A DNA stretch of 43,384 nucleotides from a virus (IMGVR_UViG_2925908680_000005:1-43384); one strand, 5' to 3'; counted from the stretch's first letter, positions 7,381-10,869 are shown. Numbers and translations are program-made. Notes: generated by a model not told the origin, from the letters alone.

Positions 7381-7395
7381 TTACCTTTTGGGTGA
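7381..7395. promoter_or_regulatory. imperfect copy of the TTACC-N5-GGTAA palindrome (TTACC TTTTG GGTGA) about 30 bp upstream of the acyltransferase start
   Basis: read directly. Confidence 0.35.
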
Positions 7396-7424
7396 TATAC
7401 TAATGGCAAATCAATGAGTAATAT

Positions 7425-8540
7425 ATGGACATCCTTTCAATGATAAAGAATGAATTAAAATCAATCCAAATTCTTAGAGGTTTGGCGGCACTTATGGTCG
7501 TTCTATACCACTTTAGGACCGTTCTTAATTATGATAATGTCAGGATGGGTGATTATCTTTTTGGTAAGGGGTTTATTGGTGTTGATTTATTTTTCGTAAT
7601 TAGTGGATTCATAATGGCTTACACGACCAACTTGACTCATGACGCTATTGCCGATGTAAAATCATTTGCAATTAAAAGGGTTAGTAGAATATATCCTGTT
7701 CTTTTTACTTCATTTATTATTGCGTCTTTATCATTCATGAATTTTGAAAGGGTATTATCACAGTCTTTTTTTGAAACACTAAGCAGCCTTGCCTTGATTC
7801 CTACAACAAGTTCTTTGCCGCCATTTTTTATAGATACACATTCAATACTTGGTGTTAGGTGGACTTTAAATTATGAGGTATATTTCTATTCTATTTTTGC
7901 GATATCTTTATTTTTTGGAAAGAGAAGGTATTATGTTCTACTGGCATGGATTATTATGACAGTATTTTTTACTCAAATACTAATTAATGGATCATTCAGT
8001 GCCAAGGCTGTAAGCCCTAGATTTGAAAGTCCATGGTTGTCAATGATTACAAACTCTATCGTTCTTGATTTTGCAATTGGCGTTATTGTAGCAATGGCAA
8101 TTGAGGCGGGAATAATAATAAATAGAAGATTATCAATTGCCTCTTTGGTTTTTGTTGCTTATGTTTCAATGAACCAGATAGCTGTAGTAAAGGGTCACGG
8201 ACTCTCAGAGTTTGGAATGTACGCAGCAATAATTGTTTATTTATGTGTTTGCCTTGAAAAAAATGGATTTAGTTTTAATTCGCCAGCGCTAGAGCATTTG
8301 GGTAATATTTCTTATTCTTTATACCTATTGCATCTGTCGGTAAGTACATTCATCGGAATAATAGTTACAAATCTCGGAGTTAGGGAATACTTTTCAAATG
8401 GCATTTATATGGTAACACTTGTAGCCATTAGTATAATGTCAGCACACATCTCGTATAAGTATATTGAGTTATCGCTATCGAGGAGGGTAAGAGGATGGAT
8501 GATGATAAAATCTGGCATCCTTGCCAAAAATAAAAATTAA
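7425..8540 (+). CDS. acyltransferase family 3 membrane protein (O-antigen acetyltransferase-like; likely lysogenic conversion gene)
   Basis: 371 aa, multi-pass membrane protein with family-3 N-terminus (RGLAALMVVLYHF...GVDLFFVISGF); strongly AT-rich relative to flanks; opposite strand to surrounding late genes. Confidence 0.8.
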   Translation: MDILSMIKNELKSIQILRGLAALMVVLYHFRTVLNYDNVRMGDYLFGKGFIGVDLFFVISGFIMAYTTNLTHDAIADVKSFAIKRVSRIYPVLFTSFIIASLSFMNFERVLSQSFFETLSSLALIPTTSSLPPFFIDTHSILGVRWTLNYEVYFYSIFAISLFFGKRRYYVLLAWIIMTVFFTQILINGSFSAKAVSPRFESPWLSMITNSIVLDFAIGVIVAMAIEAGIIINRRLSIASLVFVAYVSMNQIAVVKGHGLSEFGMYAAIIVYLCVCLEKNGFSFNSPALEHLGNISYSLYLLHLSVSTFIGIIVTNLGVREYFSNGIYMVTLVAISIMSAHISYKYIELSLSRRVRGWMMIKSGILAKNKN

Positions 8541-8541
8541 T

Positions 8542-10869
8542 CTACATATCTGATCCATCAGCATACTTCCAGGACTGAGCCAGCTGATCGAAATAAGCTG
8601 GTTTTTTTGTGTCCGTATTGTATATCATATGCCCATAGCCAAGTAATGACTTTTTAACTGAATTAATTTGAGTTGTTGTGCCTGATCGTATTATTCCTGA
8701 ATATCCAGCACTGATTAAAACCCACAGCGACCCAGTCCATATAATGGATGTGGTAAGATCGGTCTGATAGTAGCGCATTCCTTCATAACATATAGTTGGT
8801 CGTGCTGTTGATAGCCCCACCACCTTGAATCCAGCTGAGTTTTTCCATGACCCTGGAACATCATTCCAGAGGTAGTCTCCATATTCTGGGTCATAATAAC
8901 TGAAGCCGGATATTACTGAAGAGGTGAACGCCTTCCATATCCCTGTATTATCTAGGCTTCTTAATCTACACCTCTGAACGGTTGCGCCACCTGCGTTGAG
9001 GGGGTTTACTGTATTGTCAGCATTACGGCATGTAATATCTATATCAACATACAATGGGGCACTCTCTCTGGTTATGTTACTAAATCCTTGATAGTAACAT
9101 GCTGAGGATCGCAATGTTTCGCTTTGTATCCTGTCTGATTTCGAGTTATATACAGCAAGTGCATTAATTAATGCGAATGCTTCATTAACGTATGAACTTC
9201 CGACATCAGAAATTCGGTATGTATTTCTCCATTCAACGCCATTTGACACTCCTGATGATGGAGACCTGAATCTGAATGAATTATTACTTAACTTCAACTC
9301 AGAAACATACCAAGTAGCATCTGGCAATGCCGCATCTGAATCTTGAGGTGCGATTATTACTCCTGAGGCATATGTCCTTGCACTATTATTGCTTATCTCT
9401 ACGTAATCAGTAGACTGATTTTTCCTGCACGTGAACAATACAAATCCATACCCGCCAACAAGATCGTTATTATGTATATGCACTCGCTTCGAACCAATGC
9501 ATTTGAAGCAGCGCTCACTTGTTGTTTCTGCTTCCTCACTTGTGTAATCACGCATTATGGTTTTGTTATTGGAGATGAATACGCTCCTGTTGAATCCTGT
9601 TCCATCATTTTGTGATGAGCAATAAACCGCATGGCGGTCAAGCGGAGCCCCTGAAACACCAAAGATGCAGCTGTCAACTGACACCAGTTCACAATCAATT
9701 GGCACAGTGCCATAACCATACACACCTGCGTTCCAGTCCTGAGAGGCGAGTTGCTGGAAAACATTGTAATACTTAGCCCCATAGCACAGGTGAATCTGGG
9801 CGGTAACTGTGTTTACACATGCGCTGATGTTCCTCATCTCTGAGCTTTCATAATGTGCGTAAACGTTATTTACCGTAATCCCTACAACAGCCCGACCTAC
9901 ACCGCGAACTTTACCACCGTCTATCTTCACTTTAGTGGTTACACTTTCCACGCCAGTTCCGTCAAAAGTCAGAACCTGGTAGTAAGTGTTAGCGTCTTTT
10001 GGGGTGAAATTAATCCAACCATCAGCTGTTGAAGTGATGGAAATATCTCTACCATTTAGAGATTTACGGATTGGAGTTGTGATGTTCTGCACGTTATCTA
10101 CCAGGACATCAGCATTTTTACCAAGAGCCAGAATAATAGCAGGCTCTAATCCACCAGCCTCTGATGTTTTTACAAGGCCTCTTACACCACCGATATGGGT
10201 AAATCCATCTTTCTTGGCAAGTTCAATTAGTACATCAGATGCGGATCCTGATGGTGGCATAACCACAAAGGGATTGCCCAAACCATCAAAAGCGATAATT
10301 TTGTTAGCCCGCGTTACAGCATCAGGAAGTTGAGGAATGTTCTCTGGTACTCGAAGCGTCCGATTAAGGTTGCTGTTTGCAAGTGTATCAACATAATTTT
10401 TAGTGGCTGCGTCTTGAGGTTTTGAAGGATCACGCAAATTTCTGATGTAATTATTCAAAGCATTATAATAGTTTGCCACGAATGATGGCTTGCGAAGCGC
10501 TAGGTTAAACCAACTTCTAACCTGCTGGATCAACATCGTTAGCTTATCAAAAGCATCCTCATGCACTTCTGCAAAGAACTTACCCTGATTACGCAAATCA
10601 GTTTCCTGCGTAACCGGGAGGTCTCGTGATATAGAAATCTGATAACCGTTAGCCAACGCCTTCGACAGAATTACATTACCGCCGTTGTACCCTCCCGCAC
10701 CAGTTACTGTGTAATCAGTATCAAGAGCCAGCACAGCGATATTTTCATCAAGGTCAACCACCTGAACAACCAGGTCGGATTTTTTGAAAATACGGAAGGT
10801 ATACGGAAATGATGTCGTAGCGCCGTTACCGGTGTATTCGTTGTGGTCAACTTCGGTTGAGACCGTCAT
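8542..10869 (-). CDS. tailspike / tail fibre protein (conserved N-terminal anchor domain, C-terminal receptor-binding region)
   Basis: 775 aa; N-terminus MTVSTEVDHNEYTGNGATTSFPYTFRIF resembles conserved tail-fibre N-terminal domains; adjacent to O-antigen modifying gene. Confidence 0.7.
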   Translation of the reverse strand: MTVSTEVDHNEYTGNGATTSFPYTFRIFKKSDLVVQVVDLDENIAVLALDTDYTVTGAGGYNGGNVILSKALANGYQISISRDLPVTQETDLRNQGKFFAEVHEDAFDKLTMLIQQVRSWFNLALRKPSFVANYYNALNNYIRNLRDPSKPQDAATKNYVDTLANSNLNRTLRVPENIPQLPDAVTRANKIIAFDGLGNPFVVMPPSGSASDVLIELAKKDGFTHIGGVRGLVKTSEAGGLEPAIILALGKNADVLVDNVQNITTPIRKSLNGRDISITSTADGWINFTPKDANTYYQVLTFDGTGVESVTTKVKIDGGKVRGVGRAVVGITVNNVYAHYESSEMRNISACVNTVTAQIHLCYGAKYYNVFQQLASQDWNAGVYGYGTVPIDCELVSVDSCIFGVSGAPLDRHAVYCSSQNDGTGFNRSVFISNNKTIMRDYTSEEAETTSERCFKCIGSKRVHIHNNDLVGGYGFVLFTCRKNQSTDYVEISNNSARTYASGVIIAPQDSDAALPDATWYVSELKLSNNSFRFRSPSSGVSNGVEWRNTYRISDVGSSYVNEAFALINALAVYNSKSDRIQSETLRSSACYYQGFSNITRESAPLYVDIDITCRNADNTVNPLNAGGATVQRCRLRSLDNTGIWKAFTSSVISGFSYYDPEYGDYLWNDVPGSWKNSAGFKVVGLSTARPTICYEGMRYYQTDLTTSIIWTGSLWVLISAGYSGIIRSGTTTQINSVKKSLLGYGHMIYNTDTKKPAYFDQLAQSWKYADGSDM
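8580..8608 (+). terminator. intrinsic terminator for the acyltransferase gene, lying inside the 3' end of the convergent tailspike gene
   Basis: stem CCAGCT/AGCTGG with 10-nt loop followed by TTTTTTT. Confidence 0.6.

Follow-up and report, generated by a model that had tools for sequence, protein, structure and literature searches.

In phages of the epsilon15/phiV10 type (genus Uetakevirus), it is well known that a gene for O-antigen modification lies beside the tailspike gene. The slot, the class of gene that fills it and the logic of exclusion are already established. In phiV10, the slot between the tail fibre gene and the first holin gene holds oac on the opposite strand, and the annotation states that its product acetylates the host O-antigen and gives superinfection immunity. 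According to two papers, phiV10 Oac acetylates the O157 antigen and blocks phiV10 adsorption (PMC11854483; PMC9558356), and plasmid-expressed oac reduced phiV10 binding and abolished plaques (PMC11854483; PMC9558356). In Sf6, a Lederbergvirus, acetylation by Oac blocks the phage's own endorhamnosidase tailspike (PMC9558356). For proteins of acyltransferase family 3 (AT3), an R/K-X10-H motif in the first transmembrane helix and an RxxR motif in the first cytoplasmic loop (R73/R76 in Sf6 Oac) are named as essential (PMC9558356). Here we describe an AT3 gene in the viral DNA stretch IMGVR_UViG_2925908680_000005:1-43384. The whole stretch of 43,384 nucleotides is called the window and, judged from its sequence, is a Uetakevirus prophage of Escherichia coli.

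By analogy with the described systems, the AT3 gene is probably O-antigen-modification cargo of this prophage, and its product would acetylate the O-antigen that the phage's own tailspike recognises. Three aspects are modest refinements of the known arrangement and may in part have been described already: a backbone socket with a CI operator, terminators embedded in coding sequence and the linkage of the AT3 gene to the receptor-binding domain of the tailspike.

An AT3-only acyltransferase gene of low GC content

The gene order int-Rz-endolysin-holin-holin-[AT3]-tailspike is that of phiV10 and epsilon15 (E15). A sequence-only reading of the locus had placed the AT3 gene between lysis genes and tailspike, on the opposite strand to both, and this is what was found. 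Two holin genes (6591-7284), a GH19 endolysin gene, an Rz-like spanin gene and also the integrase gene lie to its left on the minus strand; to its right, the tailspike gene runs towards it on the same minus strand, while the AT3 gene is on the plus strand. The two stop codons (8538-8540 for AT3 and 8542-8544 for the tailspike) are separated by a single base.

The markedly lower GC content claimed by that reading was seen in the GC profile. The AT3 open reading frame (ORF) has a GC content of 33.7% and a third-position GC content (GC3) of 29%, compared with 53-54% GC in the lysis genes. It is the lowest-GC 1116-bp stretch of the window, about 4 standard deviations below the mean of all 1116-bp windows (49.3 ± 3.7%). 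An alternative start at ATG 7440 gives a protein of 366 aa, and this version is annotated in some assemblies.

Homology searches bore out the claimed membership in the family-3 membrane acyltransferases. The protein matched Pfam Acyl_transf_3 (PF01757/IPR002656) with an E-value of 3.1e-22 (79.5 bits against a cutoff of 31) over residues 12-335, which covers profile positions 2-316 of 326. It also matched PHROG 3333, 'O-acetyltransferase', with an E-value of 4.4e-61; the same family was matched by Sf6 Oac (5.8e-68) and phiV10 Oac (1.8e-54). No other Pfam domain and no fused SGNH domain was found in the 371 aa, so that the architecture is AT3-only. In an alignment of 42 sequences, R18-X10-H29 (two residues 11 positions apart) and the RxxR motif R85-V-S-R88 were invariant, and the latter aligned with KRARR of Sf6 Oac.

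The AlphaFold2 model of the protein (pLDDT 86, pTM 0.88) consists of helices only, about ten of them long, and the hydropathy profile comprises seven strongly hydrophobic stretches and some weaker ones. A Foldseek search of the model against the PDB gave no significant match (the best was the distant HGSNAT, probability 0.6), and the search against BFVD gave one. With phmmer, nothing meaningful was found among the PDB sequences, which offer no solved bacterial AT3 structure for comparison. No NCBIfam model reached its cutoff, and the protein was not among the PADLOC calls on the window.

The nearest database homologs, at 31-37% identity, are generic chromosomal acyltransferases, some of them labelled ExoZ or OafA/YrhL. 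An identical protein is encoded on 20 contigs, with at least two different chromosomal surroundings. Its cluster at 90% identity has 16 members, of which all named ones are E. coli; outside this cluster, the closest homologs fall to 37% identity. The carriers include the complete chromosome CP024997.2, given in a preprint as the source of an Stx2e A-subunit gene. Among 50,697 phage records, megablast matches were confined to the backbone flank 7285-7397 with no close AT3 homolog, and the best tblastn matches of the AT3 protein were below 37% identity. In 5,426 complete RefSeq E. coli genomes, the gene was not found and only the holin side matched. A scan of species-representative genome contigs gave a single irrelevant match of 27%, the representatives being without this prophage. 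The sequence variant is thus rare as far as these collections go. When compared with an 89%-identical homolog on a metagenomic contig (L017), the gene had a dN/dS of 0.15, which indicates purifying selection.

Comparison with described systems

The closest arrangement is that of phiV10: its oac (PhiV10p26) shares the genus, the slot and the convergent orientation with the AT3 gene, and upstream of it lies a TTACC-N5-GGTGA operator followed by an extended -10. Its product is likewise an AT3-only protein of PF01757 and PHROG 3333. The receptor-binding domain of the phiV10 tailspike differs from that of the window; therefore, the O-antigen target presumably differs from that of phiV10 as well.

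The Oac of the Shigella phage Sf6, which among AT3-only O-antigen acetylases has been studied most, is 26% identical to the AT3 protein over the full length (E 3e-8), with the RxxR and FFxISG motifs aligned. Its gene, too, runs towards the tailspike gene, and a terminator separates the two. In contrast to the window, Sf6 has a P22-like backbone with oac between int and tailspike, and oac is annotated with a promoter of its own and ends at an intergenic terminator, where the window has a backbone socket and a terminator candidate inside coding sequence. The Sf6 locus was fetched with a generic AT3-like probe, which served for locating only.

In epsilon15, the gene after the tailspike gene gp20 agrees with the AT3 gene in slot, strand, upstream block and operator, the last being perfect there (TTACCCATATGGTAA). 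It differs in cargo, a Wzy-type polymerase, and in the distance from the operator to the annotated gene, which is about 250 bp. The gtrABC operons of E. coli Uetakevirus prophages (for example NZ_CP104117 and NZ_CP053736) have the same backbone, operator and orientation, but encode a three-gene glucosylation pathway rather than a single acetyltransferase.

TL-2011b, a prophage of O103, has an O-acetyltransferase gene between tailspike and holin (25% identity, E 5e-13) and the same tailspike anchor. Unlike in the window, this gene is on the strand of the late genes, and the tailspike-holin interval holds no operator; in the fetched stretch, the sole operator copy lies upstream of the tailspike gene.

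Table 1. Coordinates of the AT3 locus and of the elements discussed with it.
Feature	Position	Strand	Details and basis
AT3-only membrane acyltransferase gene, 371 aa	7425-8540	+	Pfam PF01757, PHROG 3333; GC 33.7%
Predicted sigma-70 promoter of the cargo slot	7372-7401	+	-35 TTAACG 7372-7377, 18-nt spacer, extended -10 TG-a-TATACT 7393-7401
CI/Cro-type operator copy TTACCTTTTGGGTGA (putative)	7381-7395		TTACC-N5-GGTGA palindrome; final conserved piece of the backbone ahead of the cargo
Candidate intrinsic terminator for AT3 transcripts, within the 3' coding end of the tailspike gene	8577-8608	+	Folds, hairpin and T-run search, conservation
Weaker candidate terminator of the tailspike transcript, in the AT3 3' coding end	8511-8528	-	7-pair stem, 4-nt loop, then UUUUAUCAUC; terminator scan
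Tailspike gene, 775 aa	8542-10869	-	tblastn; Uetakevirus head-binding anchor and exchangeable receptor-binding part
Near-invariant backbone block from holin start to operator, part of the conserved socket	7285-7370		Alignments with phiV10, E15 and three E. coli prophages
Prophage repressor, CI-type, presumed to act in trans on 7381-7395	38895-39479	+	HTH_3 1.2e-9; no S24 peptidase domain

Predicted promoter and operator of the slot

Six sockets were aligned, namely those of the window, phiV10, E15 and three E. coli prophages with differing cargo. The sequence was near-invariant from the holin start through AAATTACC-N5-GGTGATA, and homology was gone 5-10 nt later. Beyond this point, E15 has a gene of the O-antigen ligase/polymerase family (Wzy-like), and the three E. 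coli prophages have either another AT3 gene or gtrA-gtrB with glycosyltransferases. By megablast, the holin-side flank of the window matched E15-like phages and 116 E. coli records, with matches ending at about 7397-7405. The TGnTAnnnT right after the operator was kept in all five E. coli-type sockets, though the downstream sequence diverges.

The promoter in Table 1 was the only plus-strand promoter-like site upstream of the AT3 gene in the promoter scan, and its -10 is just 29 nt from the ATG. The sequence-only reading had pointed to an imperfect copy of the phage palindrome in this region, and the copy does lie there, in the predicted promoter's spacer between the -35 and the extended -10. 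The right arm is GGTGA, not GGTAA. GGTGA is the right arm in all E. coli sockets, and GGTAA is that of 11 of the 12 other sites in the window.

In total, TNACC-N5-GGTNA occurred 13 times in the window against 0.39 expected. Sites cluster between the divergent cI and a cro-like gene (38510-38740), and a second cluster lies downstream of the repressor gene, at the start of the recombination operon (PL side). Because of this clustering, the palindrome is read as the CI/Cro operator and the clusters as an OR and OL layout. The presumed repressor, whose gene is flanked by the clusters, matched PHROG families of transcriptional regulators and repressors. Kropinski's epsilon15 genome paper of 2007 is said to give an ATTACC...GGTAAT operator consensus. 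phiV10, E15 and E. coli prophages have conserved the copy at 7381-7395. A single nucleotide distinguishes it from the copy at 38777-38791, located between the -35 and the -10 of the predicted cro promoter.

The predicted promoter and the operator belong to the phage backbone and not to the cargo, because they are common to relatives with other cargo and because the homology of contig L017 to the window starts only at 7438, inside the AT3 ORF, with an unrelated flank upstream. This bears on the earlier description of the gene as a moron, in Hendrix and colleagues' use of the word an additional gene of deviant composition that brings its own promoter and terminator. Deviant GC content and a slot content that varies among relatives agree with that description, and a terminator of its own is plausible given a candidate hairpin with U7 located 37 nt past the AT3 stop codon, inside the tailspike coding sequence. 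A promoter of its own was not found, as the predicted one is shared backbone. Hence, as regards promoter and operator, the AT3 gene is not a self-contained moron.

Two other roles of the operator were considered and rejected. A lambda-PRM-like activator role for a downstream -10 (TAATAT 7419-7424) would need a geometry that is not kept in phiV10. For a minus-strand lysis promoter, no sigma-70-like promoter was predicted there, and the site would be near -70.

The 86-bp block at 7285-7370 was better conserved among epsilon15, phiV10 and E. coli prophages than the adjacent coding sequence. Its minus strand has a -10-like hexamer (TATGAT), a Shine-Dalgarno-like run (AAGGGGG) and a short upstream ORF of 12 codons that overlaps the start of the holin gene. 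The block may serve the lysis cassette as a late promoter or as a leader.

The position of the operator leads to the first alternative, in which the AT3 protein is a lytic or early enzyme rather than one of lysogenic conversion. CI would shut the gene off in the lysogen, and the gene would fire after infection or induction, so that newly made O-antigen is acetylated and co-infecting phages and progeny are not wasted on infected cells and debris. We consider this possible but rather unlikely. It is favoured by the operator's place between -35 and -10, by the single-nucleotide difference from the cro-promoter operator and by the conservation of the operator-promoter arrangement in all six sockets compared. 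Moreover, the other two single operators of the late region control the antirepressor module, which has to be off in a lysogen. On the other side, epsilon15 lysogens stably display the converted O-antigen, and the operator ahead of the E15 gene in this socket is perfect; the operator therefore would not prevent lysogenic expression there. All E. coli sockets have the degenerate right half-site GGTGA, and no second site is there with which binding could be cooperative. Such a single, degenerate operator would damp the promoter rather than silence it, with full expression after infection or induction.

Candidate terminators in the convergent coding ends

With a single nucleotide between the two stop codons, a terminator for either gene would have to lie inside the coding end of the other. 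The sequence-only reading had reported an intrinsic terminator within the convergent tailspike coding sequence, and a candidate hairpin followed by U7 was indeed located there. Its core stem pairs CCAGCT (8580-8585) with AGCTGG (8596-8601) and can be extended to nine pairs (8577-8585 with 8596-8604), with a 10-nt loop and a T7 run at 8602-8608. The hairpin starts 37 nt after the AT3 stop codon and overlaps the tailspike codons for KKPAYFDQLA, within the last 25 codons. It is present in the minimum free energy fold, at about -14.5 kcal/mol for 8570-8612. The minus strand has no T-run after the stem; therefore, the hairpin would act on the AT3 transcript only.

In a strict search (perfect stem of at least 6 bp with at least 4 GC, loop of at most 10 nt, T run of at least 6), four hairpins with T-runs were found in the window against 0.05 expected, which is an excess of about 80-fold. 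Of the other three, two lie at the ends of cI and of the lysis operon, and one is close to a tRNA. A standard terminator scan, whose loop limit is 8, did not call the hairpin with its 10-nt loop.

The candidate terminator of the opposite transcript (hairpin 8528-8511, -7.8 kcal/mol) is conserved in sequence in L017, and its evidence is weak. In phiV10, the gap between the stop codons is 12 nt, and the scan gave no T-rich hairpin in the tail fibre gene downstream of oac.

The hairpin at 8577-8608 might also be a by-product of the KKPAYFDQLA peptide without any termination, so that transcription of AT3 would continue antisense into the tailspike gene. Both the Lys-Lys A-run and some of the arm sequence do occur in the tailspikes of the lytic phage KKP 3715 and of phage Phagiculus, the 10-nt loop is longer than typical, and the generic scan made no call. 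However, the perfect 6-bp, GC-rich arms need four synonymous choices that KKP 3715 lacks: in its tailspike gene, which has no convergent neighbour, the peptide is conserved while synonymous codons break the stem and leave 2 of 6 pairs. Arms and loop were 100% conserved in L017, although the locus as a whole is 89.6% identical. The over-represented strict sites are otherwise located at transcription-unit ends. Finally, there is no intergenic room for a conventional terminator here, whereas a relative with a 25-nt gap between AT3 and tailspike genes has a strong conventional one in the gap. We therefore give the by-product explanation a minor chance only, and the embedded hairpins are suggestive of terminators.

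Linkage to the tailspike and the acylated glycan

Residues 1-227 of the tailspike form the Uetakevirus head-binding anchor, and residues from about 228 to 775 (8542-10188) the receptor-binding part. By tblastn, the anchor was 73-84% identical to phiV10, TL-2011b and epsilon15 (79-84% to the first two). The C-terminus was 68% identical to the tailspike of the lytic Gamaleyavirus KKP 3715 and 52% to that of Phagiculus. The GC content of the C-terminal part (42.6%) is below that of the backbone. Phage KKP 3715 was mentioned in no paper found in the literature search, and a survey of tailspikes and serogroups does not include the receptor-binding protein (RBP) subtype of the window (PMC10408124).

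Contig L017 is co-linear with the window, at 89.6% nucleotide identity, over the AT3 gene and 219 or more codons at the end of the tailspike gene. In the unrelated left flank of L017 lie a LexA box and the beginning of a UmuD-like gene. As a low-GC module, the AT3 gene and the receptor-binding part of the tailspike thus travel together, and the linkage in L017 would fit a co-transfer of the receptor-binding domain with the enzyme that masks its receptor. Convergent pairing of AT3 and tailspike genes also occurs in Sf6 and in the Lederbergvirus SI8, and genes of the subfamily of the window's protein recur beside receptor-binding genes in unrelated phage types.

A 37%-identical homolog (P0003; L018 214-1840, Logan SRR25888914) was found convergent with a tail-fibre assembly gene of a Mu-like myovirus, with an overlap of 26 nt.

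The acylated glycan could be another one, such as capsule/K antigen, enterobacterial common antigen (ECA), osmoregulated periplasmic glucans or peptidoglycan, or the tailspike receptor could be something else than O-antigen; the adjacency of the two genes would then reflect an insertion hotspot. AT3-only proteins modify many polymers (PMC9558356), the nearest homologs are generic chromosomal acyltransferases with no NCBIfam equivalog at cutoff, and some Uetakevirus RBP subtypes span several serogroups (PMC10408124). Against this, the AT3 gene and the receptor-binding part were co-inherited in two unrelated backbones, and all other cargo of the slot has O-antigen functions (oac, Wzy-like, gtrABC). 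The convergent pairs in Sf6 and SI8 also speak for the O-antigen, which is the target in Sf6. Another glycan is hence improbable.

That the gene is an inert passenger or a decaying remnant in a defective prophage, as its foreign composition and the truncation of the antirepressor by an insertion sequence (IS) might suggest, is already disfavoured by the intact ORF, the invariant motifs, the dN/dS of 0.15 and the identical protein on 20 contigs, and it is very improbable.

Proposed mechanism

By analogy with Sf6 and phiV10 Oac, the AT3 protein would be an inner-membrane acyltransferase that takes acetyl from cytoplasmic acetyl-CoA by means of R-X10-H and RxxR. The acetyl group would be attached, in the periplasm, to a sugar within the O-antigen repeat, and the tailspike of the phage itself could then neither bind nor cleave the altered O-antigen. 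Carrier cells or newly infected cells would stop adsorbing sibling phages and would change serotype. The sequence-only reading had likewise suggested, from the position beside the tailspike, a serotype conversion for superinfection exclusion, and the comparisons support this as far as computation goes.

Transcription would start from the backbone promoter with the CI/Cro operator in its spacer, and only the sequence past the operator (AT3, gtr, Wzy-like) is exchanged between relatives. Expression would be high right after infection or induction, when the repressor is absent, and would be damped but not abolished in the lysogen by the single imperfect operator. Termination of the AT3 transcript would be at the hairpin and U7 that lie within the final 25 tailspike codons, and the weaker hairpin would serve the opposite transcript.

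Several points weigh against cargo that acetylates the tailspike's own O-antigen receptor. An operator in the promoter spacer that is near-identical to the PR operator predicts repression by CI in the lysogen, and this would fit poorly with stable lysogenic conversion unless the site is weak. The closest characterised relatives of the AT3 protein are only about 25% identical, and phiV10 Oac has no pairwise BLASTP similarity to it, being related at the profile level only. The exclusion data consulted for phiV10 come from plasmid-expressed oac and not from a lysogen (PMC11854483). As AT3 proteins acylate many glycans (PMC9558356), it is only position that points to the O-antigen in the window. 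The loop of the AT3 terminator candidate is unusually long, and its T-run and arms follow in part from the conserved KKPA..QLA peptide. Moreover, an IS interrupts the antirepressor gene, and the prophage may be defective.

Beyond the probable O-antigen function, a broader proposal is put forward tentatively, and we regard it as somewhat doubtful. Uetakevirus phages would have an 'expression socket', in which a backbone promoter with a single weakened CI/Cro operator ties any O-antigen cassette to the immunity switch. The plug-in of the window would be a matched lock-and-key unit: the receptor-binding domain of the tailspike and the receptor-destroying enzyme would move together between unrelated backbones, with each gene's terminator in the coding end of the other.

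Other features of the prophage

A complete Gabija defence system is located at 1-3824 on the minus strand, directly beside a P4-type integrase gene (3873-5108). It consists of GajB, a UvrD-like helicase (1-1866), and GajA with ATPase and OLD-type TOPRIM (1863-3824), with PADLOC E-values of 6e-215 and 5e-238, respectively. In other E. coli strains, the same lysis/AT3/tailspike block abuts yfgI, without integrase or Gabija at that end; therefore, the integration and defence module can itself be exchanged.

Further operator copies are located in the divergent intergenic region between the tailspike gene and a gp19-like ORF (10974-10988), as a pair inside the 5' end of the small-terminase gene (33005/33023) and as a pair upstream of a homolog of replication gene P (36360/36422).

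A near-consensus LexA box (TACTGTATAAATATACAGTT, 11026-11045, plus strand) with two mismatches is located a short way upstream of the gp19-like ORF (11065-11322), which itself precedes the antirepressor gene; by chance, no such box is expected. This suggests SOS induction via a LexA-controlled antirepressor module, which would fit a repressor without an S24 peptidase domain.

Upstream of the Bro-N antirepressor gene, Rfam searches gave a module like that of P1/P7 immI RNA (11326-11586, plus strand). It comprises c4-a1b1 targets at 11392-11444 (44.1 bits, slightly below gathering), isrK at 11405-11481 (74.7 bits) and C4 antisense RNA at 11500-11586 (79.5 bits). A good promoter, TTGAAA-17-TATATT (11326-11354), is directly followed by a CI operator copy (11354-11368). 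The antirepressor ORF (11635-11991) matches phiV10p23 to about residue 95 of 194 and then runs into an IS3-family element on the minus strand (orfB 11916-12821, orfA 12779-13189). The antirepressor is probably inactivated, and the prophage may be poorly inducible.

Implications

O-antigen acetylation by prophages changes the serotype and can defeat serotyping, O-antigen vaccines and phage- or tailspike-based detection and therapy. The rare AT3 variant of the window could explain non-stoichiometric O-acetyl substitution in one E. coli serogroup. If the socket proposal is true, the cargo would be expressed in a burst on infection or induction and at a low, dosed level in the lysogen. All cargo of the slot appears to depend on the operator-bearing backbone promoter, and this bears on when genes of 'lysogenic conversion' are expressed.

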